Part shown: in pieces, positions 1 to 35,139 of the stretch
How positions within the stretch are numbered: position 1 is the first letter of the stretch
Layout of the letters: each line of letters opens with the position of its first letter
UHGV virus genome: UHGV-0098759
DNA: 35,139 nucleotides
DNA from: a virus
Reading direction: 5' to 3' (one strand)
Translations under genes and position numbers: made by a program
The notes under the pieces: generated by a model
Seen by the model: the letters and a program-made list of their open reading frames with translations, nothing else
The model's database searches: none
What the model was told of the DNA's origin: nothing

Positions 1-97
1 CGATTTTTGTCGCATGGTGCAAGTTAAATAGGCGAGTAATCTCCTGTTTAGGTTTCCCTAATATCATGTACCCATGATAACACGAGGGGGTACAACA

Positions 98-370
98 ATG
101 AACATCGGTAAAGCAATCATCAACTACGCAGCACGTCGCAACATGGACATTACCTTGATTGACGATGAGACCGTGGCGTTCTGGGAAGCGGATAACGATT
201 GTGAATGGATGTTCTCCTACATGATTGGTAATGATGGTTTCCTCCACTTTAAAGGGAATGTGTATCTGCCGCAGGATATTAAAGAAGAATTACCAGCGTG
301 CATCGATACAGACAAGAAGCTGAAAGAAGTAATCAACTTTATCGCTAAAGAGTTTATCAGCAAGAAGTAA
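98..370 (+). CDS. hypothetical small early protein (track ORF 74..370; ATG at 98 preferred)
   Basis: ATG at 98 is preceded by GAGGGGG at a 7-nt spacing; ORF is open to TAA at 368-370; no recognisable domain. Confidence 0.45.
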   Translation: MNIGKAIINYAARRNMDITLIDDETVAFWEADNDCEWMFSYMIGNDGFLHFKGNVYLPQDIKEELPACIDTDKKLKEVINFIAKEFISKK

Positions 371-807
371 TGTCTAATTTGGCGGGTACTATTCCCGCCG
401 ATTTAAACGGAATACAGACAATGTTCAATATCATGATTCGTAAATTTGGTGAGATGACTTTCGAGAAAGCTGGTGTTGCTCGTACCGAAGAAGAAGCAAT
501 GGCTTTAGTTCTGGTAGCACTGAGATCATCAACTGATATTATCGACGCTGAATATGTAGCCGCAGAAGGTGAGATTAACGAGATTAAAGCGGTGGCTAAG
601 GAATTAGGTGTTAAAGGTTTCCGTAAGCTGAGACTATCCCGCGAGTCATATGTAATTGGTAAGCAAGGACAATACCTAGATGAGAATACCGTGATTGTTC
701 TACTGAATAAGATCACCCGCTATGGTTTCCAGATTGAGCAATATAAAACGTGTTTTGAATTATACGAAAAAGGTTTGCTGGATACTCTGACCATCGTTCG
801 CGCTTAA
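370..807 (+). CDS. hypothetical protein (alternative start at ATG 421, downstream of the 381-399 stem-loop)
   Basis: ORF in the track; ATG at 370 overlaps the upstream stop (TAATG); a conserved stem-loop lies inside the first 17 codons, so a start at 421 is also plausible. Confidence 0.45.
   Translation: MSNLAGTIPADLNGIQTMFNIMIRKFGEMTFEKAGVARTEEEAMALVLVALRSSTDIIDAEYVAAEGEINEIKAVAKELGVKGFRKLRLSRESYVIGKQGQYLDENTVIVLLNKITRYGFQIEQYKTCFELYEKGLLDTLTIVRA
381..399 (+). promoter_or_regulatory. conserved intergenic stem-loop, copy 1 (GGCGGG-TACTATT-CCCGCC) within the motif TCTAATTTGG...
   Basis: Perfect 6-bp stem; second copy at 822-840 has compensatory base changes; followed by TTTAAACGGA and an ATG. 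Confidence 0.5.
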
Positions 808-821
808 TTAATTTCTAATTT

Positions 822-847
822 GGTGGGTGTAATTCCCACCGCTTTTT
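822..847 (+). terminator. conserved stem-loop, copy 2 (GGTGGG-TGTAATT-CCCACC) plus T-run; intrinsic terminator or processing site
   Basis: Same TCTAATTTGG-hairpin-TTTAAA(C/T)GGA architecture as 371-420; stem covaries (C to T paired with G to A); followed by GCTTTTT. Confidence 0.5.
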
Positions 848-863
848 AAATGGAGAATCAAAC

Positions 864-944
864 ATGTTAGCTTTTATCTCATTCGTGGGAGGTAGTCTCA
901 CAACTATTATTAGTCTTTCTTATCTTGTCGTTAGTATGGGGTGA
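864..944 (+). CDS. possible 26-aa hydrophobic peptide (MLAFISFVGGSLTTIISLSYLVVSMG)
   Basis: ATG at 864 with GGAGA 7 nt upstream; below the ORF-track size cutoff; hydrophobic throughout. Confidence 0.25.
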   Translation: MLAFISFVGGSLTTIISLSYLVVSMG

Positions 945-947
945 GCA

Positions 948-1073
948 ATGAAACAATTTCATGATGGCATTTCATCTAAGACATTCAAGAAAGAATATAG
1001 CGGATTGTGTATTAACTGGATTGATTTGATTGGTGCGGTTGTGTTTGGTCTGGTAATTAGCATCAATTTTTAA
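948..1073 (+). CDS. possible 41-aa small protein with C-terminal hydrophobic helix
   Basis: ATG at 948 preceded by GGGGTGAG; stop TAA at 1071-1073; below the track cutoff. Confidence 0.25.
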   Translation: MKQFHDGISSKTFKKEYSGLCINWIDLIGAVVFGLVISINF

Positions 1074-1090
1074 CGATATAAATATATCGT
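1073..1090 (+). promoter_or_regulatory. perfect 18-bp palindrome ACGATATA-AA-TATATCGT; candidate operator upstream of the 1119 gene
   Basis: Exact inverted repeat read directly; lies about 30 bp upstream of the RBS of the secreted-protein gene. Confidence 0.35.
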
Positions 1091-1118
1091 AATTCAAACA
1101 ACAAGAGGAAATTCTACT

Positions 1119-1538
1119 ATGAAAAAGATTATCGCTGGTATCGTTCTTGCTCTGGGTTTGGTTGGTGCTGCAAATGCTAATACCTATACCTATTATGTGT
1201 GCAATTCCTACTTCGAATATAAAGGAGATGATACACGCTACCTGAGTGATGGCGACCGTTATTATCATGCGCCGTCTGGCAAATACCGTGGTTTTATCGG
1301 TGTAAAGGTTCGAGTGAATGATGATAATAGTCAATTTGCTTTCAACGATCCGGTATTTGATAAAACAATCAAAAGCCCGAAACTGAAAGAAGATAAGAAC
1401 GAGAAAGAAGAATATTATGGTTCCGAAGATGGTAAGTCTTACATCAAATATCTGCATTCTGTAGATGGCGCTCCTATATTTGATGTTAAAAAAGGTGATA
1501 CATCTTATACCCTGATTAGCTGCCGTGAAATTCTTTAA
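1119..1538 (+). CDS. secreted or periplasmic protein with N-terminal signal peptide
   Basis: RBS AGAGGAAA before ATG 1119; N-terminus MKKIIAGIVLALGLVGAANA is a classic Sec signal with an AxA cleavage site; no domain recognised. Confidence 0.6.
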   Translation: MKKIIAGIVLALGLVGAANANTYTYYVCNSYFEYKGDDTRYLSDGDRYYHAPSGKYRGFIGVKVRVNDDNSQFAFNDPVFDKTIKSPKLKEDKNEKEEYYGSEDGKSYIKYLHSVDGAPIFDVKKGDTSYTLISCREIL

Positions 1539-1552
1539 TCTTTAATCACCTA

Positions 1553-1592
1553 GCCCCTATCGTTATAATACGCGGTAGGGGCGTTTTTGTTT
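1553..1592 (+). terminator. hairpin plus T-run downstream of the 1119..1538 gene
   Basis: Stem GCCCCTA/TAGGGGC with a large loop containing TTATAAT, followed by GTTTTTGTTT; could alternatively be a recombinase-proximal site. Confidence 0.35.
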
Positions 1593-1601
1593 GGAAATGG
1601 T

Positions 1602-3281
1602 ATGAAAACTAAACTGTATTCGTATATTCGCTTCTCGTCTATGCGTCAGAATGATGGTTCGAGTTATGAACGACAAATCAGGATGGCTAGAGAGATTGCG
1701 GTAAAGTATGACCTTGAACTGGTAAATGATTATCAGGATCTGGGTGTATCTGCGTTTAAGGGTGCTAACTCCAAAACAGGGGCGCTATCTCGTTTCCTTG
1801 ATGCAATAGGTAGATCCGTTCCTGTTGGTAGCTGGCTATTCATCGAAAACTTGGACCGTTTATCCCGTGCCGATATTGTCAGTGCGCAGGAGTTATTCCT
1901 TTCAATCATCCGTAGGGGGATAACCATTGTTACTGGCATGGATAACAAGATCTACTCGCTGGATACTGTTACCGCTAACCCGATGGACCTGATGTTCTCC
2001 ATCCTTTTATTCATCCGTGGTAATGAGGAAAGCCAGACTAAGCGCAATCGTACTAACTCAAGCGCACTGATTAAGATTAAAGCTCATCAAGAAAATCCAC
2101 AAAATCCGGCTGTTGCAATCGAGGAAATTGGAAAGAATATGTGGTGGACTGATACCACATCTGGTTATGTGCTTCCTCATCCGGTCTTCTTCCCTATTGT
2201 TCAGGAAGTTGTGGAATTACGCAGGAATGGACGGTCAACCGCCGAGATACTGGATCACCTTAACGCGACATACACACCACCACCAGCCGCAAGTCACAAG
2301 AGGCATTCAAACTGGTCACGGGCAATGATTGAAAGGTTGTTCCATACCCGCGCTTTGATTGGTATCAAGGAAATCTCTGTAGATGGCGTTAAGTATGAGT
2401 TAAAGGATTATTATCCTCGTGTGCTAGATGACGCTGAGTTTTATCACCTTAAGAAAAGCATTGGTGTTAGAGCATGTAACTTTGGAGACAAAGAAGAAGT
2501 TAAACCTATTCCCTTGCTTAGTGGTGTTGGTCTATTGAAATGTGAACATTGCGGTTCCGCTATGGTTAAGGTGAAAGGAACAAACAGACGGCCTAACCAA
2601 TATCGTTATTCATGCGATGCAATGCGCTCTAGTCGTATTGAATGTGTGCATACAAACTGGAGTTTTCGCGGCGACCAATTAGAGAAAGCTGTATTGCAAT
2701 TGCTGGCTGATAAAATCTGGATTGCTGAAGATAAGGCTAATCCGGTTCCGGCTTTGAAAGTACAGATTGATGAAATATCACGCAAGATTGATAACCTGAT
2801 TACCCTTTCTGCTATGACAGGAGCAACGAAGGAGCTAGCCGATCAGATTACTACCCTCAATAGCGAGCGTGAAACACTCTACAATCAAATTAAGATGGCA
2901 GAAGAGGAAATGTATTCTGTTGACTCTCAAGGCTGGGAGAAGCTCGCAGAATTTGATTTAGAAGATGTTTACAACGAGGATCGCATTAAGGTCCGGTTTA
3001 AGATTAAGCAAGCTCTAAAACGGATCGGGTGTAGCAGGATTGACAAGTACAAAAACTTGTTTGTATTGGAATACATCGATGGCAAGACCCAGAGAGTTGT
3101 AATAGAAAATTCAAGAGGACCGAGGAAAGGCCGGATCTTCATTGATTTGAAGACTATCAATGATAGGCAGATTCTGGAGAGTAACGGGCTTGTTCTGCAT
3201 CCATGTTTAGACATGCTGACAGATAAGAACTGGAAACCAGAAGAAGAAATACCAGGTCCATTACAGGAATTTGGAATTTAA
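1602..3281 (+). CDS. large serine recombinase (integrase-type)
   Basis: N-terminal YIRFSSMRQ matches the serine-recombinase catalytic motif; C-terminal Cys-rich zinc-ribbon (CEHCGS...YRYSC...IECVH) and coiled-coil region; track ORF starts at TTG 1587, first in-frame ATG is 1602. Confidence 0.8.
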   Translation: MKTKLYSYIRFSSMRQNDGSSYERQIRMAREIAVKYDLELVNDYQDLGVSAFKGANSKTGALSRFLDAIGRSVPVGSWLFIENLDRLSRADIVSAQELFLSIIRRGITIVTGMDNKIYSLDTVTANPMDLMFSILLFIRGNEESQTKRNRTNSSALIKIKAHQENPQNPAVAIEEIGKNMWWTDTTSGYVLPHPVFFPIVQEVVELRRNGRSTAEILDHLNATYTPPPAASHKRHSNWSRAMIERLFHTRALIGIKEISVDGVKYELKDYYPRVLDDAEFYHLKKSIGVRACNFGDKEEVKPIPLLSGVGLLKCEHCGSAMVKVKGTNRRPNQYRYSCDAMRSSRIECVHTNWSFRGDQLEKAVLQLLADKIWIAEDKANPVPALKVQIDEISRKIDNLITLSAMTGATKELADQITTLNSERETLYNQIKMAEEEMYSVDSQGWEKLAEFDLEDVYNEDRIKVRFKIKQALKRIGCSRIDKYKNLFVLEYIDGKTQRVVIENSRGPRKGRIFIDLKTINDRQILESNGLVLHPCLDMLTDKNWKPEEEIPGPLQEFGI

Positions 3282-3285
3282 GCTA

Positions 3286-3543
3286 ATGAAGATGATTAAG
3301 ATTTTAGGTTTGATTTTATCTATGAATTCTTGCCTGGCATTGGCAACCGTAGACCAAGAAATGCGTAGACCGCTAACCTATAGAGAAGATGCTTTCATTG
3401 ATGGAGCACATAAAACATTGAAATTGCTATGTCAAAAGACCACCAGTAATTACGGTGAATACAGAAAATGTTATGAGGAATCACTAGACATTTATTCTGA
3501 TGAGGTGAGAAAGATTTTCATAGAACAAGAAAATAAATCATAG
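3286..3543 (+). CDS. small secreted protein with signal peptide
   Basis: ATG at 3286 with GGAA upstream; N-terminus MKMIKILGLILSMNSCLALA is signal-peptide-like; track ORF begins at TTG 3271, overlapping the recombinase stop. Confidence 0.5.
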   Translation: MKMIKILGLILSMNSCLALATVDQEMRRPLTYREDAFIDGAHKTLKLLCQKTTSNYGEYRKCYEESLDIYSDEVRKIFIEQENKS

Positions 3544-3579
3544 GCGGCCTAAATCGCCGTATAACGAACCAAACGCTTT

Positions 3580-3607
3580 AAGGGGTAATTCGTACCCCTT
3601 TTTAATT
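3580..3607 (+). terminator. intrinsic terminator (AAGGGGTA-ATTCG-TACCCCTT followed by TTTAATTT)
   Basis: 8-bp perfect stem with T-rich tail, at the end of the plus-strand gene block. Confidence 0.6.
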
Positions 3608-3777
3608 TAATTGCGTTAGAGAGTCTCTAATGGGCTTAAATCAAGCTCTAGGTCTTCCGGTTCTTTCATTACTTCAACCAGAGACGGCTTCGTCAAAAAC
3701 GACTTTATCGTCTGCGGTATATTTGTCTATAATGAAAAAATGGTCAGAAATATAGCTAACGTCGCCAGCATATTCTA

Positions 3778-3812
3778 ACAAAAAAGCGCCCACTAGAGGC
3801 GCTTTAATTTTA
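3778..3812. terminator. bidirectional terminator hairpin (AAGCGCC-CACTAGA-GGCGCTT flanked by A-run and T-run)
   Basis: Perfect 7-bp stem with A6 upstream and T-rich downstream, at the convergence of the plus-strand block and the minus-strand late and lysis genes. Confidence 0.6.
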
Positions 3813-4163
3813 TCCATTCCATCGTGATTTTTTCGATCTGGAATCGATATGCGTAAATGTTTTATATTTTCCTAAGCCGTATTGAGTAGGATATTTCCCA
3901 TCAAGATAAGCATGAACAATATCAGGTGAGACACCCTTGATAACAATGTCAGCCGCGCGGCCTCGAACGTGATAGCTATTGGCTGCCCCGCCTACATTCT
4001 TGTTATGAGTCGGGCAACGGTTGCCACTGTTAATAATAACTGGTTTCCCGAAGTGTTCTCGTACATCCTCAAGAATTACCAGTAATTCAGCATCGATAGT
4101 ATCATAATCACATTTTCCGCATCTACATTTAAATTCCTTGCGAGAAAAATGCTTACTTAACAT
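3810..4163 (-). CDS. endolysin, M15-family zinc peptidase-like
   Basis: Motifs FSRKEFKCRCG, SYHVRGRAADI and a C-terminal His (THID) match the small M15 peptidase fold used by phage endolysins; RBS AAGGGGG. Confidence 0.7.
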   Translation of the reverse strand: MLSKHFSRKEFKCRCGKCDYDTIDAELLVILEDVREHFGKPVIINSGNRCPTHNKNVGGAANSYHVRGRAADIVIKGVSPDIVHAYLDGKYPTQYGLGKYKTFTHIDSRSKKSRWNG

Positions 4164-4172
4164 ATTACCCCC

Positions 4173-4520
4173 TTAGATCATTTCGAAGATATAACCAATA
4201 AAGCGCATACCCTTGATATAATAAGGAGCAGTGCCTACACACACCGCGCGTGCATCACCCAGACAGTTAAAGCTATAAGGATTAACTACATCGACTTCTT
4301 GCCCGACACGAAAACGATACTTAGGACGTTTAGCCAATGTAGCGACACAAAACACGGTCCCTTTTTCATGATCGCGGATACATTCTTTATATTGTTTATG
4401 TTTAACTCTCTTCGCCTCAAAATCATAGGTCATTGATTCTGGGCTAATGCCATTAATAAAAATACCGGAAAGCTGATCGACCGGATAAGTAGGAAATTCA
4501 GTGAAAATATTTTTAGCCAT
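4173..4520 (-). CDS. hypothetical protein
   Basis: ORF with GGAGG RBS; no recognisable motif. Confidence 0.5.
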   Translation of the reverse strand: MAKNIFTEFPTYPVDQLSGIFINGISPESMTYDFEAKRVKHKQYKECIRDHEKGTVFCVATLAKRPKYRFRVGQEVDVVNPYSFNCLGDARAVCVGTAPYYIKGMRFIGYIFEMI

Positions 4521-4558
4521 GTTATACCTCCATAGGATTCTATGAGGGTATTTATTGA

Positions 4559-5242
4559 TTAAACGTATTTCATGCGCGATTTAATGTGCTTATTGATGTT
4601 TTCAAGCATCATTGCTTCATTGCTTTCCCACGATCCTAGCGTCGAATAACGAGTAGAAATTTTATCCGACTTAACGGCAACAATTCGCTTACTCTGTTTC
4701 TGGATGCGTTTCTCTAAGCGACGTTTTGCCACCGCCGATCCATTCTTAGCGCGTTTGGTTCGGGATTTCTTAGGCTTGTACTTCTTCATGATAAAAGTCC
4801 CTTCCTTGTTCTCTACCTTGATGAAGTTGCCGTTTTCGATGTTACGCATCATCTTACCGCCTTTGATGGCCTTAATGTTCCCGTGGGCGTCTAAGACCTT
4901 ACCGTTAGCGATTGGCACTAGCTTATTGATTTTGCCACCATCGAAATAGTGTTTCAGATAGTCGTCCTGACTACCGATCTTCTTGTCCTTATCCCTTGCG
5001 CCCTTGATGAAGATTTGGTGTCTCGTCCCTGATCGGTTCTTGTAGTTGGTATTACCTACAGCTTGCTGAGTCCATCGAGTAGGTCTATCAACATTCTTGT
5101 TAATCTTCTTCTGGAGTGCTCTGGAAGCAAAGATCGCCCCTTCCCCTATCGCCTTTTCGAATGTATCGGTTGCTTTATCAGTCCATTGGCGTAACGCTTT
5201 CTTAGTCCTTAGAGCGTTTCGTTTATTGGTACTGGTTGCCAT
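4559..5242 (-). CDS. hypothetical strongly basic protein
   Basis: ORF with RBS AGGGGG; Lys/Arg-rich throughout; function not recognised. Confidence 0.5.
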   Translation of the reverse strand: MATSTNKRNALRTKKALRQWTDKATDTFEKAIGEGAIFASRALQKKINKNVDRPTRWTQQAVGNTNYKNRSGTRHQIFIKGARDKDKKIGSQDDYLKHYFDGGKINKLVPIANGKVLDAHGNIKAIKGGKMMRNIENGNFIKVENKEGTFIMKKYKPKKSRTKRAKNGSAVAKRRLEKRIQKQSKRIVAVKSDKISTRYSTLGSWESNEAMMLENINKHIKSRMKYV

Positions 5243-5432
5243 GTTAGCCCCCTAATAACGAAAAGACCCCCGCCAGTGTCCTTAGCAATTGTTCATCCAC
5301 GGTCATAGCCGGGAGTTCAAGCCCAAAGGACGTTAGCAGAGGTCTAATAGCTACGTTATAAGTGAGGGCGACAATCAAGAGATAACCAAAATATTTCTTA
5401 AGTTTATTCTTCATATATTCACCCCTTTATTA

Positions 5433-5711
5433 TTATTTTTGTTTGAGTATGTCGAGAACTTGGTCAAATTTGGCGTCCATCGCAACCACTTTCTTCTCTA
5501 TACCGTGTAGTGTTTGTTCCATTTGGTAAACACGTTCAGCAATCTGAGTATGGTTATTCTGCATCGTCTCAAACTTCTGGTTTAACAATGCGTCGCTGGA
5601 TTCCAATTTAGATAACCTATTTTCAGTTGCTAATTGATTTCGGTGAAGTCTCCAAAGACCACCACAAATTAAGGCGATAACACCGATACCGCCATATATA
5701 ATTTCAGTCAT
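5433..5711 (-). CDS. membrane-anchored coiled-coil protein (holin- or i-spanin-like)
   Basis: N-terminal hydrophobic helix (IIYGGIGVIALICGGLW) followed by a coiled-coil-like segment; RBS GGGGG; lies between J and the lysis region. Confidence 0.45.
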   Translation of the reverse strand: MTEIIYGGIGVIALICGGLWRLHRNQLATENRLSKLESSDALLNQKFETMQNNHTQIAERVYQMEQTLHGIEKKVVAMDAKFDQVLDILKQK

Positions 5712-5816
5712 TACGCCCCCGATATTTTTATATAGTTTAATGGCAAAATTATTTAGATAAAAATAATCCCGCCTAACTCAAAAGAATTAAGCGGGATTTA
5801 TTATTAAAATTAAATT

Positions 5817-8800
5817 TTAAGAAACAGTAATACCAGTAGTGGCTTTTTTAGTTACCATTACTGTTAGATCGCTGATATATGCACTTGGGTTATAGTTGTT
5901 AACACCATCACAAATAACTTGGAATGTTAACGTTACAGCACCTTTACCCGCTGGCATGTCAATAACGCCTGTGTACATGCTGCCAGAAGTAGCCGTGCGA
6001 TCATATAGAACAGAGCCATTTTTCTTAACGATTAATCGGCAAGTGTCCCAATGATCACTACTTTCGCCACGACGAACAGACCCGTTATGGTGAATAGCTG
6101 GAATCACAATTTGGCGATCAAACTTATGATCATCTTCCACCCTTACCGTAACAGTGCCATCAGGCCAGTTTTGTTGACGATGAGGGAATTTCTTACCAAT
6201 CACCTTAACGAAATCACCCTTAACCTGAGTAGCTTCAAGCATACCCTTAATAACACAGCTAGAGTTAATCGTGACGTTGTTCAGAGTACCAGAATCAGCC
6301 GTGATATTACCTTTAACGGTAGCATTCATGAACGTAGCGGACCCGTTCTTGTTGATATGCCATCCGGTAGATCCGTTCCAGTTGGAAGACTGGATATAGT
6401 TACCAATTTTGGCGTTATCAATTGCACCGTTTACGATCTTGGCGTTAGTGATTGCCCCGTCCTGAATCTTCGCGCTGTTAATTGCAGCATTTCCGATCTT
6501 AGCGGTAGTAATCGCCGCATCATTAATCTGGGCTGTGCCAATTGCAGCATTACGAATCATCGCATTATCGAGATAAACCTTGTTACCTTCGATACCAAAC
6601 GGGCAAACATCGGTCCCGTTCTGCGGAGCTACAGCAATTTTATCAGCCGTAAAGATGATTTTAGTCGGTTGTGCCGGATCGTTGGTTGCGCTCATGTGAA
6701 TACCAGCCACGCGACCATCTGCATTAACTGCCAGATTGTATTTGCTGTTAATGGTTCCTTTCAAAGCATCGATTTTTACATCTGCTTCCTGATTCACACC
6801 AGCAATCTTGCCATCCATTTCTACCCGAACTTGATCAATCTTACTTGCGCTTGCTGCCTCACTGGTAGCAATAGCTTGTTTCAGGGTAGTAGCAGATGCG
6901 CTAACTTCTTTGGTGATATCGCCTTTCAGTTCAGCTTTAACCTGATCAATCTTAGTTGCACTGGCTTGATCACCAGAAGTAATCAGACTCTTTAAGGTAT
7001 CGGCTGAGGCTTGCACCGTCTGCCCTGTTTCGGTAGTGATTTGCTTATGCATTGCATCAATTTTAGCATCGGCATTAGCGCCAGCTTGAGCAATAGCATC
7101 AGCGATGGTTTCATCTAAGCGATCTTGTAAACCAATCAGGTCTTCCAGTGCTTCTTTGTCCTGGTCGTCCCAACTAATCGTAGACTTCATAGACATGAAA
7201 TAAGGTTCGGACCAGACAGCATCATCCATACCGAAAATATCGTAGTGAGCACCACGGATATAATAATCACCGTCAGCAATATCAAAGGAAGTATGGCTAA
7301 CACTATTCGTGCTTACTGCCCTTGCATCGGAGAAAGTGTTATCGGTTGCATACTGGATGATTGACCCTGCATAGTCATGTTCTACGTCATCTGCCCAGCT
7401 AACAAACGCAGTATTAAAGCCACCACGCGCACTAAAACCTTTCATTGGCTTATGCTGTGGGTTGATAGCCACTAAACGCGCTGGGGCGCTCTCTGAGTTG
7501 TTATAGCCCTTAGCTGATACTTCTACCGTCAGTTGACGCGAAAGGCCGTTAAACTGGTTCATATCAAGCGTATAAGTCCATGATTCAGGATCGCGGGTAC
7601 GGTACTGAATAGACTTACCAGCCTTGTTAGTCACCTTGATAATGTATGCTTCAAACAGGTCACTAAACTTGTTAGTTTCCCCGTTGATCTCAACATCTAA
7701 TTGTTGCTGATTTTCCCATTCGATAATCAGATCATTACCTTCGAAAGTTCCTGGCGTGCTACCCTGATTTTTGATTCGAATAACCGGAGTCGGCAATTCA
7801 TATGTAACAGTTGGATTCTGGTTAATCAGTTCTACCCAATCGGATCGAGCGATGATACCGAAAGCACAAACTCGGTAATCATAAGAACGATCTTTTGCCA
7901 GTGCATTGACACTGAAAATTTGCTGTGAAGTCTGTCCCAGCTTAATCCAGTTAGGTGATCCGCTTACACGGTAATCAATCTGAAAACCATAACGGTTAAA
8001 ATCTTCCGGCGCATCCCATGTCAAAGTAACGTTTTTACCGTAAATCGTCTCGCCAGTTGCCTTAATTCTGAAATTAGTAGGCTTCTGTACTGTCATTGAA
8101 TCCGGTAAACCACTTGGTCTATTGTCTGGAGTTGCCGCATAGTTCAGGTCAGTATAAACCTGAGAATTATATTCTGTGGCGGTGATAGTCATCATCCCAG
8201 CAATACCAGAATCAATCGAGCGATCAATTGCAGTAATACGCCATAAGGAATTATTCAGCTTCAATTCATCATAGGTTACGCTGATAACGTCCCATACTTC
8301 GGCAGTGAATGCGTCAGTAGTCATAAAGCTGATAACCTGAGTGATACGAGATTTATTTCGTTCAATACTCGCAAGTTTATCAATCTGGTCTTTAGACTTA
8401 ACGAAACGATATTCTACATCCTTAGCAATAATTCGACCATCTGCGCGAACAGTAGCATCGTTTTCAGCATCAGCCGGATAACGTAGCATTTGCTCTGAAT
8501 AGTCGATTGATGGTTCCTGATACATTGCGTTAATGGTATTGAAATAACCGTTAGTGCCACCTGTTTTCAGTGATACCTTACCCATCATGATATTGTCTTC
8601 ATTGAAGGTATGCTTAACAATATCAGGAGCATCCAGTTTCAGCGTAATACGTCCAAAGGATTCGAACATCACCCCGCCGAAAGTCTGCATAAGACTGGTC
8701 AAGTTCTCTTTAAAGCTGGCGTTCGGATCACATGCACCGTTTGAATGTAGGTCCATCTGGCGTACTTGTTTACGTACTTTCAGGAATGAATCAACGTTGA

Positions 8801-14973: not shown

Positions 14974-14993
14974 TTTGATTACTCCAATAAAAA

Positions 14994-15020
14994 AGCCCCA
15001 CCATTAAGGCAGGGCTTAAA
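14994..15020 (-). terminator. intrinsic terminator after the tail-tube extension (AGCCCUGCC-loop-GGUGGGGCU, then U6)
   Basis: Stem contains G-U wobbles only when read on the minus-strand RNA; homologous in sequence to the terminator at 20926-20955. Confidence 0.55.
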
Positions 15021-15021
15021 A

Positions 15022-15147
15022 TTAATTCTTAGCCTTGCGGCCTCGTTTTGCTGTGGCTTTCGCCGTAACTTCTTCTACTTCTGGAATCACCACCGCTTCA
15101 TGTTCCGGCAGTGGTTCCGGTTCTGGTAAAGGAAGTTCTTCGTTAGT
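15022..15147 (-). CDS. in-frame post-TGA extension of the tail-tube protein (38 codons; ...EVEEVTAKATAKRGRKAKN)
   Basis: TGA at 15148-15150 is followed by 38 sense codons in frame ending at TAA 15022-15024; no ATG inside; homologous to the capsid extension. Confidence 0.5.
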   Translation of the reverse strand, partial: TNEELPLPEPEPLPEHEAVVIPEVEEVTAKATAKRGRKAKN

Positions 15148-15678: not shown

Positions 15679-18600
15679 TTATTTAGTTGCTTTCAGTTCG
15701 GCAATTTCTTTCTGTAATGCTTCGATCTGTGTTTTATATTTGGCGTCCATTTCCTGCATAGCTTTAATAATCAAGGCATTAACAGCAGAGTTAGAAATAG
15801 TCTTGATTGCTTCCGGTTGTTCTGGATCTTCTGTGGATTGAATACCTACTGCTTCCGGCAATACTTTTTCCAGATCCTGAGCAATAATACCTACTTCGCG
15901 TTTAATCACCGTGTCATCGGAAAGAGATTTAACTTTATCGTAGGTGTAGACTTTCAGTGAGTTTACTTTCTCTAATGCACCGTCCTGTAATTCTTCCTTG
16001 TTAATCTTCAAACGGGAGTCAGAGCGAATGTAAACATCGTTAAAGCTACCGTTACGACCTGCGCTAAAATCACCCGCAGCGTTAAAGTCAAAGTTGGCGT
16101 CGTGAACGTTTAGGCGAGCTAAAGCATTGGTAATAGTACCACTAGGAACATGCACACCCATTGCCGCAATATGATATTTTCCCCAATGAGTCGCTTTCCA
16201 GATGTTATGAGCGGAATCGGTTGAGTTCGGACAGTCTACGAGGATTCCGGCAGAACGATCACGCCAGCTAGCCCAGCTACCACCAGCAACATTACCACGA
16301 ATCAAACCTTTATCAGACCCGCCGACAGTCCCCGCCTCAAGATGAATCATTTTATCAGCAAGTTTCCAAGTTTGACCTTGTTTCTGACCACGGAAGCGGA
16401 TAACACCAGCATCATCGCAGTACATCAAACCTAATTCTAAACCGTTCGGATCTCTAAACCATAAATGCTTATTACCACTGCGACGAAACTCAATATCAGC
16501 ACCGCCAACCTGTATATTGCTCGCAGTTTTTAATGTACCAGCAACAGAGAACAGGATAGGACCAGTTCCACCGTTTGTACGTTCGGTATACCAATGATAA
16601 CTAGTAGCATCCTTACATTCAAAAACCTGTTTGCGTTGCTCGTTACCCCATGTATGTAAGGTAAATTGAGACGCAGATCCACGATTAGCATCAAAGGCAA
16701 TCTCACCGGATTCTACACGCACGAAGCCTTTAAAACGTGCTGTGATATTGCCAGTACCCATAGCGCGTTCAGTGGTAAAGTGTGCACCCTGACTGTCTTC
16801 AATCTGTAGGATGTTATCGCGAGCGTTATTACTATCGCCCCAATGGTTAAACCGGAAGTAATCGCGGGATTGTCCAGCACCAGCATCAAATGTTAAATGT
16901 TGACCTTTGATGTAAGCGTTGCCAGAGAATCGAGCGGCCTTGCTTGCGCGTTCTAGAGTTAATACATCTTCGTTTCCATCACCACCTAATTGAACGTTAC
17001 CGGAAGTAAGATCGTAGATAAAAGGTCGATATGTATTCCAACCACCAAATCTATCATTTTCGGCAGTAGACAACAGATAAACTTTACCACCATCATTTCG
17101 CCAGAATGCACCATACTTACCGTAAATCATACGGAATGCATCAGCGTTAGCGGAATAATATTGACCATTGGTATATACAATTTTTGTTTTTCCTGTAGTC
17201 AAATTTACTTGTCCACTACCTTCCAAATCAAATGAGTTAGCACCAACATCATTACGCCACACAAAACCATCACTAGTACCATCCGCATGACCGATATAAC
17301 CACTACGTTGGTTTTTACCATCACGACGATCCCACCACGCCATATATGCAGCTTGACCAGTCTGTCGATGTAAAGTCATCGCATTACCACTACCGTGCAA
17401 TTCCATTTTACCAGTAATTACATATCCTTTATAATTACCCGGTATTGCACTATTAGAATCAATTCTAATAACTTCTGTAGAATCTGTAGCACCAGTAGCA
17501 AGACGATATACAGCACCCTGAACGGTTTCATGCCAAACCATTTCGTTATAGTTGCTACGGAATTTACGAATATATTTCCGTCCAGTACCTTTATCATTAC
17601 TTAGATGAACAATGTCATAGCTGTTTTGTGTGTTATCATCAAAACTTAACACACCACGTTTATTTTCAGTATTAAAAAGAGTTACGTTGCGACCACCGAT
17701 AACACCAACGGAAGGTTTAATTAACGTGGCTTCCGGCGTATCATAAACCGTCAAACTTACATAAACAGATTTCCCATATTCGACAATAACGTTATCGGTA
17801 TAACGCTGATATTTCACGTAGATATCATAGTTATCACCGGAAGTATTGACAGCAAATACCTCAAAATCTTTGTTTGTATTTCTACGGTATGCAATTACGT
17901 TAAGACCTTTAGGTCTATCGTTACCACTACGCAGAAGAATTTCTACTACGTCAACCTGATCATATGCCGTAACGTTGTAACCATTACCACCATGAATACG
18001 GAAAAACACACTACGCCCGTTTTGTGGAATTGTTGCGGTTGCCAATTTGAAATATGCAGATACGTTTTCGCTAGAATTGGGAACAGACATAACGACGTTT
18101 TTAACAAACATCTTATCAACTTCGGCTTTGGTGTATGCACCAATCTCGCCAGGAGTCGGCTTATCACCTTCGTGATACATCTTATAGCTAAAGTTCTTCT
18201 GTCCTTCTCTATCAAAACCATAGGTTTCAACACGAGATCCACCAGATGCATAACGGAAAGTAAATCCGCGACCGTGCGCTTTACCGGAAGAGTGAGGAAC
18301 GTTAAGAGTTAGATCCATGAGTCCATCTTGACCATTGGTACGGAAAGCACCAAAGTAGTTAAGATCTCGTGATGTCTGGTCTTCCAGATAGTTAGCTGTC
18401 TTGCTTAACAGATACCCACCATGCTTAGTATTGGTATTCTTCTTGATGTAAAGAGCATCATTGCTACCTTCAATACCATCAATTCGTTTGTTAGCGGCTG
18501 CAATTGCGGCATCAGTAGAAGATTTATTCTGGTCTACCTTGTTGTTAATTGCGGTATGGTTGCTATTAACAGTGCCAGTAAGATTGGTAATCTTAGTATC

Positions 18601-19281
18601 CGCGTCTTTCTTATTGTCGGAAACAGTCTTTTCGATCGCTGTCTTGTTAGCTGCAACCGTGCTAGTTAAGCTAGAAATTTTGTTATCTGCATCGGTTTTA
18701 TTTGCAGTAACAGTTTTAGTTAAGTTGCTAACGTTGGTGTTAGTGGTATTAACCTTGTTGTTAATCGCGGTGTTATTGTCAGTGACCGTTTTCGTTAAAG
18801 CTGCATGTTTGCTATCTGCATCAGATTTGTTTGCGGCAACGGTTCTTTCAATTGCGGTCTTATTCGCAGATACGGTCCCCGTAAGGTTATTGATCTTAGT
18901 GTCGGCATCGGTTTTATTTGCCGTAACTGTCTGGGTTAAGTTACTAACAGTGGTGTTGGTAGCATCAATGCGCTTATTGGTCGCTGTATCTTTCGTGGTA
19001 ATAGTCTGATTCAGTTCAGCTTTAGCACTAGCCAGATTATTAGCGGCCTCTTGTTTGTTGGAAGCAATAACACGGTCAGTGCTAGTTTTGTTATTGTCTA
19101 CTTTCGTGTTTAAAGCATTATGACTTTCTGGGGAAACGCTGATTTGAACTACTGCGTTATTTTTGTCTTTGGTGTAAATTACATGGTCTGCCATCTGAAT
19201 AGCGATTTCACCGACCTGTAATTGTTCCGGCGTTGGTTTTTTACCAGCCGTTTGTGTGCGTTTAAATTGGATTGATTGCAT
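15679..19281 (-). CDS. long tail fibre with heptad-like shaft repeats and C-terminal intramolecular-chaperone-like domain
   Basis: 1200 aa; N-terminal third has repeats of type TVTANKTDADTKINNLTGTV; C-terminus (...SDSRLKINKEEL...IEALQKEIAELKATK) resembles self-cleaving chaperone domains of phage fibres; KPTP.EIGA motif at N-terminus and internally. Confidence 0.75.
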   Translation of the reverse strand: MQSIQFKRTQTAGKKPTPEQLQVGEIAIQMADHVIYTKDKNNAVVQISVSPESHNALNTKVDNNKTSTDRVIASNKQEAANNLASAKAELNQTITTKDTATNKRIDATNTTVSNLTQTVTANKTDADTKINNLTGTVSANKTAIERTVAANKSDADSKHAALTKTVTDNNTAINNKVNTTNTNVSNLTKTVTANKTDADNKISSLTSTVAANKTAIEKTVSDNKKDADTKITNLTGTVNSNHTAINNKVDQNKSSTDAAIAAANKRIDGIEGSNDALYIKKNTNTKHGGYLLSKTANYLEDQTSRDLNYFGAFRTNGQDGLMDLTLNVPHSSGKAHGRGFTFRYASGGSRVETYGFDREGQKNFSYKMYHEGDKPTPGEIGAYTKAEVDKMFVKNVVMSVPNSSENVSAYFKLATATIPQNGRSVFFRIHGGNGYNVTAYDQVDVVEILLRSGNDRPKGLNVIAYRRNTNKDFEVFAVNTSGDNYDIYVKYQRYTDNVIVEYGKSVYVSLTVYDTPEATLIKPSVGVIGGRNVTLFNTENKRGVLSFDDNTQNSYDIVHLSNDKGTGRKYIRKFRSNYNEMVWHETVQGAVYRLATGATDSTEVIRIDSNSAIPGNYKGYVITGKMELHGSGNAMTLHRQTGQAAYMAWWDRRDGKNQRSGYIGHADGTSDGFVWRNDVGANSFDLEGSGQVNLTTGKTKIVYTNGQYYSANADAFRMIYGKYGAFWRNDGGKVYLLSTAENDRFGGWNTYRPFIYDLTSGNVQLGGDGNEDVLTLERASKAARFSGNAYIKGQHLTFDAGAGQSRDYFRFNHWGDSNNARDNILQIEDSQGAHFTTERAMGTGNITARFKGFVRVESGEIAFDANRGSASQFTLHTWGNEQRKQVFECKDATSYHWYTERTNGGTGPILFSVAGTLKTASNIQVGGADIEFRRSGNKHLWFRDPNGLELGLMYCDDAGVIRFRGQKQGQTWKLADKMIHLEAGTVGGSDKGLIRGNVAGGSWASWRDRSAGILVDCPNSTDSAHNIWKATHWGKYHIAAMGVHVPSGTITNALARLNVHDANFDFNAAGDFSAGRNGSFNDVYIRSDSRLKINKEELQDGALEKVNSLKVYTYDKVKSLSDDTVIKREVGIIAQDLEKVLPEAVGIQSTEDPEQPEAIKTISNSAVNALIIKAMQEMDAKYKTQIEALQKEIAELKATK

Positions 19282-20925: not shown

Positions 20926-20955
20926 CAAAAAAGCCCCGCCAATAACGGCAGGGCT
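20926..20955 (-). terminator. intrinsic terminator after the capsid extension (AGCCCUGCC-GUUAUU-GGCGGGGCU, then U6)
   Basis: 9-bp stem with one G-U wobble formed only on the minus-strand RNA, followed by a T6 run. Confidence 0.6.
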
Positions 20956-20960
20956 AATTA

Positions 20961-21089
20961 TTATTCTTTAGTTTTACGCTGTTTTTTAGCTGTGGCTTTC
21001 GCCTTAACCGTCTGGGATTCTTCTTCCGGTTCAGGAATCAGATTTTCTTCCCCCAAATCGGGGGAAGGTTCAGATGGTTCTACAGGAGT
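20961..21089 (-). CDS. in-frame post-TGA extension of the major capsid protein (43 codons; ...IPEPEEESQTVKAKATAKKQRKTKE)
   Basis: TGA at 21090-21092 is followed by 43 sense codons in frame ending at TAA 20961-20963; no ATG inside; Pro/Glu-rich linker then basic AKATAKK tail. Confidence 0.5.
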   Translation of the reverse strand, partial: TPVEPSEPSPDLGEENLIPEPEEESQTVKAKATAKKQRKTKE

Positions 21090-28164: not shown

Positions 28165-28194
28165 AAAAGCCCCTGAAATTCAGGGGCAAAAATT
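28165..28194. promoter_or_regulatory. palindrome GCCCCTGAA-A-TTCAGGGGC containing one copy of the TTCAGGGGCAAAAAT iteron
   Basis: Perfect 9-bp inverted repeat whose right arm is identical to the iteron unit of the 30541-30716 array; lies between convergent genes. Confidence 0.5.
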
Positions 28195-30399: not shown

Positions 30400-30540
30400 A
30401 ATATCTTTTTGGTTATTTGTTGTTTTTGGTTTTACACATGAGCGTAGCGAATGTGTTATATAATATCTATGCACGCCCAATTCCCCGTTTTTGCCCTCAC
30501 TAACTTAATGTTTTATAAAGAGTTTTTCTTACCAATCCTT

Positions 30541-30716
30541 TTCGGGGGCAAATTTCAGGGGCAAAAATTAGATTTTCAGGGGCAATTATTGGCATTTCAG
30601 GGGCAAAAATGAGGGGCAAAATCACTGTTTCCCAGAATTTCAGGGGCAAAAATAGTGGGTTTCAGGGGCAAAAATGGGATGTGAAATCTAGGGGATTTTG
30701 GTTCAGGGGCAATTTT
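30541..30716 (+). repeat. iteron array: about 8 direct copies of TTCAGGGGCAA(A/T)(A/T)AT at roughly 21-bp spacing
   Basis: Copies start at about 30541, 30554, 30575, 30596, 30612 (partial), 30639, 30661 and 30702; an inverted partial copy lies near 30485-30498. Confidence 0.8.
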
Positions 30717-34093: not shown

Positions 34094-34888
34094 ATGAAAA
34101 ACATTATCGCTGCTATCGTTCTTTCTGCTACTGCATTCGGTGCTAATGCTGCATCCTTCGATTGCACTAAAGCTACTACCAAATCAGAGAAGTTTATTTG
34201 TGCTAATGAGTCAATCTCCGCACTGGACTCTAAACTTCATGAAGTATATGTTAAGGCTGTTAAGATTGATCCGTCGCTTAAACAAGAGCAACGCAACTGG
34301 AATAAAACTGTTCGTGATACAATGATCAATATCGGGCAGATTCAGCCACTGGAGGCTGTATACAACGCTCAAATCCAAAACTTGATGGATGTATTATCTA
34401 AAGAAGAAACCGCGTCAGAAAGCGATTCAGAGACTTCTGCGAAGGTTGAAGAAGAACAACCGAAGGCAGTAGAAACTCTAAAAACCAAAGAGAAACAAGT
34501 TGTTCTGGAAAAGTCCCCAAATAGCAACTTCGTATATATTTGTCCGAAAGTAGTTAAGATAACCACAATTGACGGACTGAGTGTAGAAGATCGTGATATA
34601 GTGAAAGAAAACACAAAAATTGTAATCGATAAAAACAAAGACAAGGCAAAACTTCTAATTTCTGGAACGATGCACCCCCCAGTTGTAGTGGAAATGAATA
34701 TTGACGCTGATGGATTCATGTCAAAAACTACAAAAACTGGTGTAGAGTTATACGCACAACACGGAAAAACATATTCCGGTGATAAGATGGTTGATGATGT
34801 AAGAACACTGGACTATCATCATATTTATGTTGACAACCGTACCGGAAAGGAAATCGAATGGAAATATTCTTGTGTAGAGAAAAAATGA
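34094..34888 (+). CDS. secreted protein with LprI-like (lysozyme-inhibitor-like) N-terminal domain
   Basis: Signal peptide MKNIIAAIVLSATAFGANA, then SFDCTKATTKSEKFICANESISALDSKLHEVY matching the LprI-type pattern as recalled; signal peptide resembles that of the 1119..1538 product. Confidence 0.55.
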   Translation: MKNIIAAIVLSATAFGANAASFDCTKATTKSEKFICANESISALDSKLHEVYVKAVKIDPSLKQEQRNWNKTVRDTMINIGQIQPLEAVYNAQIQNLMDVLSKEETASESDSETSAKVEEEQPKAVETLKTKEKQVVLEKSPNSNFVYICPKVVKITTIDGLSVEDRDIVKENTKIVIDKNKDKAKLLISGTMHPPVVVEMNIDADGFMSKTTKTGVELYAQHGKTYSGDKMVDDVRTLDYHHIYVDNRTGKEIEWKYSCVEKK

Positions 34889-35052: not shown

Positions 35053-35139
35053 TTTTTAGTTATTTTGGGTTGACTACATTCGGGTTGCCAATTCGCCTGG
35101 CTAACTCTTGCTGAGTGATTTCTGACTGTAAAAAAGCAT

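Follow-up and report, generated by a model that had tools for sequence, protein, structure and literature searches.

A PeSL-like intercistronic linker in the small accessory operon of a serine-integrase prophage of Escherichia coli

What is the role of two similar hairpins, each followed by a ribosome-binding site (RBS), that stand before consecutive small genes in the virus genome UHGV-0098759? This stretch of 35,139 nucleotides, the whole of which is referred to here as the window, carries the two elements in the gaps between its genes 1 and 2 (element 1; el1) and between its genes 2 and 3 (element 2; el2). A previous interpretation made from the DNA letters alone (the sequence-only reading) regarded them as a conserved hairpin-plus-RBS cassette of an early operon. 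In this study, the elements were aligned, folded and searched for in other genomes, and the locus was compared with that of related prophages. We propose that el1 and el2 belong to a linker which at the RNA level would combine a leaky terminator or 3' stabilizer with a translation start region, and which at the DNA level serves as a portable homology patch, resembling in this respect the elements termed PeSLs in RB49-type phages. A probability of roughly 60% is assigned to this interpretation.

The two elements share a common order of parts: the stop codon of the upstream gene, an AT-rich leader TAAT(G/T)TCTAATTT, a GC hairpin of 6-8 bp with a 7-nt loop, a U/A-rich tract, a Shine-Dalgarno (SD) sequence and an ATG. 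Element el1 reads TG-TCTAATTTGG-CGGG-TACTATT-CCCGCC-G-ATTTAAAC-GGA-ATACAGACA-ATG and el2 reads TTAATT-TCTAATTTGG-TGGG-TGTAATT-CCCACC-G-CTTTTTAAAT-GGAG-AATCAAAC-ATG. The hairpin is predicted to form 10-14 nt past the upstream stop codon, and the GGA of el1 or the GGAG of el2 lies 8-9 nt from the ATG. Over about 80 columns, from the stop codon to two bases beyond the start codon, the two are 81% identical, and the repeat finder returned them as family D18 (40 nt, 80% identity, spacing 441 bp). Local alignment of el2 with the remaining window gave a score of 42, compared with 25.3 +/- 2.1 (maximum 32) for 200 composition-matched random windows. This similarity is far above chance. Both elements are predicted to fold, el1 with -18 kcal/mol (z = -3.4) and el2 with -12.5 kcal/mol (z = -1.4), and the stems GGCGGG/CCCGCC and GGTGGG/CCCACC have values of -9.8 to -13.5 kcal/mol. 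The two hairpin-plus-RBS elements recognized by the sequence-only reading are real. They are paralogous copies of one intercistronic linker of about 55 nt. No further copy was found in the window, either by exact and one-mismatch motif searches or with a covariance model run with its filters off. Since the window is the whole phage, the question of additional copies in the full genome, raised by the sequence-only reading, can be answered: there are none. The next match of the covariance model (E = 0.6) is at 15028-14971 on the minus strand and belongs to an ordinary terminator-plus-RBS unit of the late operon (15040-14971), which is like el2 in its flanks and unlike it in the hairpin.

The interval from the attachment site (att) to the integrase gene (int) was then compared among related prophages, whose loci are numbered L007, L008 and so on. 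Four arrangements are distinguished. Type A, that of the window, has the order gene 1 - el1 - gene 2 - el2 - gene 3. Type B possesses a 70%-identical allele of gene 1, one el2-type element and gene 3, with gene 2 missing; types A and B differ by 441 bp, which is exactly one spacing of the repeat. Gene 2 together with one element is a unit that is present or absent as a whole. Type C has the order gene 1 - TAAGGCAGCAAAACAATG - gene 2 - el2, in which a 12-nt spacer takes the place of el1. In type D both gene 1 and el1 are missing and the leader of gene 1 is joined to gene 2 at ACAATG. An origin of el1 by transposition was considered and rejected, as no target duplication accompanies el1 and el1 substitutes for the 12-nt spacer.

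Further joints fall at or within the second element. In L008 and L176 the el2 sequence continues as far as the 3' arm of the hairpin and is followed by unrelated sequence with a different small hydrophobic open reading frame (ORF); the breakpoint lies inside the 3' arm, and a G.U pair results. In L175 the element joins a diverged gene 1 to a diverged gene 3, and the el2 core differs at 1/55 nt (about 98% identity), with nucleotide identities of 70% for gene 1 and about 58% for gene 3. In total, the element is observed at five gene-pair junctions: 1/2 (el1), 2/3, 1'/3 (L007, L012, L023, L025, L027, L177 and L178), 1'/3' (L175) and 2/alternative 3. What the comparison shows is a linker that is noncoding and conserved and where exchange of small genes takes place. 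This cassette shuffling, the main biology of the locus, was invisible to the sequence-only reading because only a single genome was seen.

The noncoding nature of el1 follows from the start codon of gene 2. Translation is placed at ATG 421-423, since relatives that lack el1 (type C) or gene 1 together with el1 (type D) begin there, and the description of the elements as noncoding intercistronic cassettes by the sequence-only reading is confirmed by these starts. It could be argued instead that gene 2 is translated from an ATG at 370, with el1 coding for additional N-terminal residues. This ATG overlaps the stop codon of gene 1 (TAATG) in the reading frame of gene 2; the predicted extension would be MSNLAGTIPADLNGIQT, in contrast to the N-terminus MFNIMIRK for a start at 421. 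The RefSeq/PGAP annotation of strain PI7 (NZ_CP074033) follows this course, with gene 2 running from ATG 370 across el1 as a 'beta/alpha barrel domain-containing protein'. However, ATG 370 is replaced by ATT in L015, L142 and L143, the equivalent of the start at 421 is used in C- and D-type loci in which el1 is missing, PGAP itself picks the downstream start in other strains, and the same register in el2 runs into a stop codon. A coding role of el1 is barely credible and was rejected on the C- and D-type starts and the lack of conservation of ATG 370.

Outside this genome the element occurs in members of the same prophage family. It is present in 25 IMG/VR contigs of 20-45 kb, and among 5426 complete E. 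coli genomes el2 is found in 57 and el1 in 19. A degenerate hairpin pattern searched for in 185,579 species representatives gave 110 matches, all attributable to chance, in unrelated taxa and none set in a context of TTTAAA or an RBS; six more chance matches came from IMG/VR with a looser scan. No Rfam family matched at its gathering score anywhere in the window, and the sub-threshold matches at 360-420 are at chance level (E = 0.9-6). Its occurrence is limited to a single family of E. coli prophages.

At the RNA level, the hairpin would form behind the upstream stop codon and act as a leaky intrinsic terminator or attenuator, most clearly in el2 with its run of five U residues, and could also serve as a 3' stabilizer for the cistron before it. 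The translation initiation region of the next gene would then be made up of the single-stranded A/U-rich tract and the SD sequence. At the DNA level, the comparison shows the linker to be a portable patch of homology at gene boundaries, where small ORFans are inserted, deleted and exchanged, gene 2 with its element being one such cassette. In the terminator scan el2 was called terminator-like (7 pairs, five of them G-C, followed by CTTTTTAAAT/CTTTTT) and el1, with its tail ATTTAAAC, was not called. The suggestion of the sequence-only reading that the elements are attenuators or translational control elements is reasonable, and el2 has the anatomy of an intrinsic terminator or attenuator.

The argument for an RNA structure relies partly on covariation. 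The stems of el1 and el2 differ by one double change, C383-G397 versus U824-A838. When seven distinct variants found among the relatives were compared, only one of the seven pairs varied, being U-A in four, C-G in two and U-G in one. The covariation score was matched or exceeded in 63 of 500 column shuffles, which is suggestive but statistically not strong. Templated repair of quasi-palindromes can also keep an inverted repeat perfect, so that selection on RNA is not proved by one compensatory pair. The compensatory change reported by the sequence-only reading is thus genuine, and the selection on RNA structure deduced from it is a weak conclusion. Stems of the el2 type are intact in all 34 collected copies, if the G.U pair present in one copy is counted. 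Other phages supply a better argument that the structure has a role: in vB-Eco-KMB41 and Cronobacter phage ESP2949-1, the stop codon of the gene 1 homologue is followed by a short GC hairpin, an SD sequence and an ATG, and the stems (GCCCGG...CCGGGC and GGCCCC...GGGGCC) are unrelated in sequence.

Several observations weigh against the proposed interpretation. The stem of el1 is followed by just AUUUAAA, and the d-scores of el1 and el2 (d'Aubenton-Carafa type) range from about -16 to -43, whereas the two terminators in the late operon of the phage reach +27 and +36. Because these scores are well below those of the late terminators, partial termination or a protective 3' hairpin is to be expected and not a full stop. 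The compensatory change concerns a single pair and is one event, and 4 of the 14 collected el1 copies have a stem mismatch (GGCTGG, or CCCGCA at the stem base); the natural variant L140 carries the stem-breaking change G384T. Insertion and deletion of gene 2 are alike compatible with the comparison, which gives no direction. Homology between the el1/el2 hairpin and the PeSLs of RB49 was not detected, and the RBS part alone aligns. Finally, we infer the effects on termination, stabilization and translation from sequence.

Other explanations of the hairpins have to be weighed against these considerations. The sequence-only reading had proposed RNase III-type sites, at which a polycistronic early transcript would be cut between its genes, in the manner of the T7 early region. 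The intercistronic position is suitable, and the el1 stem can be lengthened into an irregular helix of 14 bp, made up of 3+3+8 pairs with two mismatches. Sites of the T7 type, however, span about two helical turns, often with an internal loop; the perfect helices here are of only 6-8 bp, and the extended lower helix is absent from the el2 fold and is without covariation support. The absence of any Rfam match points in the same direction. With stems of insufficient length, processing by RNase III is a decidedly improbable account of the elements. The same intercistronic position speaks against a DNA operator, in which the 6-N7-6 inverted repeat would be bound by a dimeric regulator of the phage or the host. 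The repeat is perfect and occurs twice in one operon, as an operator might, but the sites lie between cistrons and not at a promoter, no other copy is present near the promoter-like regions of the phage, and the differences between el1 and el2 are symmetric in both half-sites, as expected of a hairpin and not of a shared protein contact. This makes an operator very improbable.

A passive recombination scar deserves more attention, although we consider it unlikely. According to this explanation the duplication would be just the trace left when a cassette entered by homologous recombination, templated repair and not selection would keep the palindrome perfect, and the hairpin would be functionless. 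The single compensatory pair, the broken stem in 4 of 14 el1 copies and the dispensability of el1, which is absent from the B, C and D types and found in 19 genomes as against 57 for el2, are all consistent with such an origin. Set against this are the intact el2-type stems in every collected copy, the much stronger conservation of the element than of its flanking genes, the unrelated GC hairpins that hold the same position in other phages, and the experimental finding that PeSL stem-loops terminate transcription (PMC2839356). The elements might also be active PeSLs, with a sigma-70 promoter lying over the stem-loop and each cassette driving the next gene independently. The stem-loops of PeSLs often overlap the -10 box (PMC2839356). 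The loops TACTAT and TGTAAT match TATAAT at 4-5 of 6 positions at a distance from the ATG that allows a leader, and TTGGNG-N17/19-TTTAAA offers alternative candidate -35 and -10 boxes. A promoter scan of positions 1-6000, on the other hand, gave no site at 371-423 or 808-866, and by direct reading the best -35 hexamer at 16-18 nt matches at no more than 3 of 6 positions. In the el2 loop, which is TGTAAT in some copies and TGCAAT in others, the A2 of the consensus is missing, and TTTAAA has neither A2 nor T6. A promoter within the element is rejected at the sensitivity of the scan, and active PeSLs of this kind are improbable. The leaky terminator and translation start region with a portable homology patch remains the interpretation that we prefer.

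The setting of the linker is a complete 35-kb serine-integrase prophage in the E. coli gene hicB. The two halves of hicB correspond to the first 61 bases and the last bases of the window, and joining window 1-55 to 35087-35139 gives a sequence 100% identical to the intact hicB of thousands of genomes, which places the insert at about 56-35086. Integration truncates hicB and presumably leaves hicA intact. Close relatives are integrated in ycdX rather than hicB, with an identical TT core, and the junctions of the hicB- and ycdX-integrated relatives set the TT crossover. The minus strand carries the lysis, tail, head and packaging genes. A nucleotide search of INPHARED found no close phage relatives, the terminase is at most 43% identical to that of any isolated phage, and a literature search for a prophage integrated in hicB or ycdX gave nothing relevant. 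Between attL and the integrase gene, on the plus strand, lies a cluster of five small genes that holds both elements. The genes that they precede are consecutive, as the sequence-only reading had stated; the label 'early' is corrected, the genes forming a small accessory operon that lies next to attL in an integrated prophage.

The att sites suggest how this operon may be expressed. In the reconstructed attP, the sequence TTGACT-ACATTCGGGTTCCCTAA-TATCAT forms a near-consensus sigma-70 promoter with a 17-nt spacer, and the start of gene 1 follows 31 nt on. Integration splits this promoter, the -35 hexamer being left at attR and the -10 hexamer at attL. Since the two are separated in the prophage, the five-gene array may be transcribed only from circular DNA of the excised or infecting phage. 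The promoter could also be a coincidence, as the hexamers belong at the same time to the imperfectly symmetric arms of attP.

The features of the locus are collected in Table 1. Genes 3 and 4 probably encode genuine small membrane proteins, because they are conserved, have good RBSs and are represented by diverged or alternative alleles in relatives. No Pfam domain was found in the gene 2 protein. A second type of linker, between genes 4 and 5, is 93.5% identical to its counterpart in L175, where the flanking genes are only about 58-79% identical; an additional 27-aa ORF lies 3' of this linker in L175.

Table 1. Coordinates of the two elements and of neighbouring features in the window
Feature	Position	Strand	Description
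attL	54-67	+	Crossover TT (54-55), phage arm ccctaa, -10-like TATCAT (62-67); upstream of gene 1
Gene 1	98-370	+	90 aa, phrog_6147; SD sequence GAGGGGG
el1	371-420	+	Intercistronic, gene 1 stop to gene 2 start codon; TAA 368-370; TCTAATTTGG 373-382; stem GGCGGG 381-386 / CCCGCC 394-399; loop TACTATT 387-393; ATTTAAAC 401-408; GGA 409-411 (weak SD sequence); ATG 421-423
el1 hairpin	381-399	+	Lengthens to 8 bp via U379/U380 and G400/A401; dG -11.3 to -13.5 kcal/mol
Gene 2	421-807	+	128 aa, phrog_14908; cassette with el1 and el2 on either side
el2	808-863	+	Intercistronic, gene 2 stop to gene 3 start codon; TAA 805-807; TCTAATTTGG 814-823; stem GGTGGG 822-827 / CCCACC 835-840; loop TGTAATT 828-834; CTTTTT 842-847; GGAG 852-855; ATG 864-866
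el2 hairpin and tail	822-847	+	Hairpin 822-840, G, CTTTTT 842-847; terminator-like
GGAGAATCAAACATG	852-866	+	SD sequence, spacer and start codon; motif common to RB49 PeSLs
Gene 3	864-944	+	26-aa hydrophobic peptide, no PGAP annotation; diverged and alternative alleles in relatives
Gene 4	948-1073	+	41 aa, hydrophobic segment at C-terminus; unannotated
Second linker type	1074-1118	+	AT hairpin/palindrome cgatataaatatatcg and AGAGGA RBS, between genes 4 and 5
Gene 5	1119-1538	+	139 aa with signal peptide; other alleles or none in relatives
Strong terminator	1553-1592	+	Closes the accessory operon, directly before the integrase gene
Large serine recombinase/integrase gene	1602-3281		
attR	35070-35086	+	-35-like TTGACT (35070-35075), phage arm, crossover TT (35085-35086)

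Several further observations concern the operon and the rest of the window. A TATAAT lies in the loop of the operon terminator (1553-1601), about 30 nt 5' of the integrase start codon, and may belong to a terminator-embedded promoter for int. The DNA encoding the signal peptide of gene 5 (1119-1151) is 91% identical over 33 nt to that of an LprI-family gene at the other end of the prophage (34094-34126), and the mature parts of the two proteins are unrelated. The insertion sequences IS5, IS1 and IS911 interrupt the accessory array in some strains (L142, L143 and L176), and one IS1 copy is situated exactly at the start codon of gene 3, immediately 3' of el2. Elsewhere, an 81-nt repeat of 72% identity (14989-15069 and 20928-21008, minus strand) comprises a lysine-rich C-terminal coding tail (AKATAK...) and a strong terminator, one copy lying behind the gene for the major capsid protein and the second behind a structural gene of 157 aa. 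Both tails are out of frame with the upstream gene, so that they may be programmed frameshift extensions. Iteron- or operator-like repeats, namely five or six copies of TTTCAGGGGCAAAAAT with spacings of about 22 and 43 bp, occur at 30540-30690 and 28171-28193, where long ORFs are missing.

If the proposed interpretation is true, 'legal' recombination at gene boundaries is steered by short, conserved regulatory linkers in temperate as in T4-like phages, and small ORFans are documented to pass between coliphages of the virulent and the temperate kind. Recombination between repeats of 55 nt finds a simple and testable system in the 441-bp gene 2 cassette. A promoter split by integration, if real, would be a neat switch restricting accessory genes to the non-integrated state. 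As regards annotation, some RefSeq entries give gene 2 a wrong start, and two small ORFs have been left unannotated. No major paradigm is changed, and the feature is of modest interest.

Among known systems, intrinsic terminators resemble the elements in having a GC hairpin directly past a stop codon, and in el2 a run of five U residues begins one base after the stem; the flanks of the late-operon terminator-plus-RBS unit (15040-14971, minus strand) are much like those of el2. The elements differ from them in their 6-8 bp stems, in the degenerate U tract of el1 (AUUUAAA) and in scores below those of the clear terminators of this phage. The RNase III sites of the T7 early region likewise are hairpins between the cistrons of a polycistronic phage transcript, but their helices are far longer and irregular, in contrast to the 6-8 bp here. 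An integron attC site, an imperfect palindrome with RYYYAAC...GTTRRRY cores on which an IntI tyrosine integrase acts, was rejected in view of the missing GTTRRRY core on the 3' side, of a large serine integrase as the sole nearby recombinase and of the replacement of a 12-nt spacer by el1; a nut-like reading was, like the attC-like and operator readings, rejected by direct inspection of the sequence. Classical morons carry their own promoter and terminator. As with the morons and boundary linkers of temperate phage mosaics (Juhala/Hendrix; Clark et al. 2001), the accessory genes here lie at a genome end and are swapped as units, with short conserved boundary sequences where the mosaic joints fall; they differ in that several ORFs would share one upstream promoter, with a repeated hairpin-RBS linker between them.

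The closest parallel is found in the PeSLs. The hyperplastic region of phage RB49 served to define these elements (Arbiol et al. 2010, PMC2839356), which consist of an upstream stop codon, an AT-rich stretch, a sigma-70 promoter, a polyG/polyC stem-loop, an SD sequence and a start codon (PMC2839356). The stem-loop terminated transcription in a lacZ reporter, and crossovers between PeSLs can fall in the loop (PMC2839356). Typical of PeSLs are also a single chimeric element where an ORF has been excised and the appearance of mini-circles in infected cells (Arbiol et al. 2010). In the worked example, the ORFan ORF192 lies between two PeSLs in RB49 and one PeSL takes its place in phi1 (PMC2839356). 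PeSL cassettes are known from the T4-type pair RB49/phi1 and also from PST/T4 and nt-1/KVP40 (PMC2839356; PMC4122927). An identity of 45% is shared by the gene 1 protein with RB49p194 and by the C-terminal 76 aa of the gene 2 protein with RB49p190; the two RB49 proteins are encoded in the ORF190-194 stretch that is part of the defining region (PMC2839356). Each gene of this stretch is preceded by TAA, an A-rich segment, GTTGTTGAC, a GC stem-loop, TATAATAC, a leader and GGAGAATCAAA(C)(A)ATG. The end of el2, AAATGGAGAATCAAACATG, aligns to the translation start regions of the RB49 PeSLs with z = 3.5-5.1, and the T1-like phage LL5 has a like leader before its homologue of gene 1. In the distal tail-fibre gene of the prophage (15679-19281, minus strand), positions 15848-18415 are about 80% identical in nucleotide sequence to gp37 of RB49-type (Krischvirus) phages. 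This is independent evidence that genes have recently passed between the prophage and those phages that served to define PeSLs.

The likeness thus extends to the intergenic position, from the stop codon through an AT-rich stretch to an SD sequence and start codon (368-423; 805-866), to a stable GC stem-loop of polyG/polyC-like character, to the ribosome-binding motif GGAGAATCAAA and to flanking genes homologous to RB49 ORFs 194 and 190. In both systems the elements border small ORFans, relatives differ by an ORF plus one element, and here, too, one crossover falls in the stem-loop. In contrast, el1 and el2 have no recognizable sigma-70 promoter, measure about 55 nt as against about 100 nt, occur in only two copies per genome with a hairpin of no detectable homology, and reside in a temperate 35-kb serine-integrase prophage instead of a virulent T4-like phage. 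Because the promoter, a defining feature, is not recognizable, the element is called a PeSL-like linker and is not filed as a PeSL. A wider proposal is doubtful and put forward tentatively: PeSL-style shuffling would extend beyond virulent T4-like phages, a promoter-less linker would connect the accessory pool of this prophage with the hyperplastic regions of RB49- and T1-type phages, and the array, driven by the attP-only promoter, would be silent in the lysogen and switched on at excision or infection. The connection between the pools is drawn from the shared ORFans, the RBS motif and the gp37-like fibre gene. In genome evolution the element acts like a PeSL, as a modest variant of a known theme.

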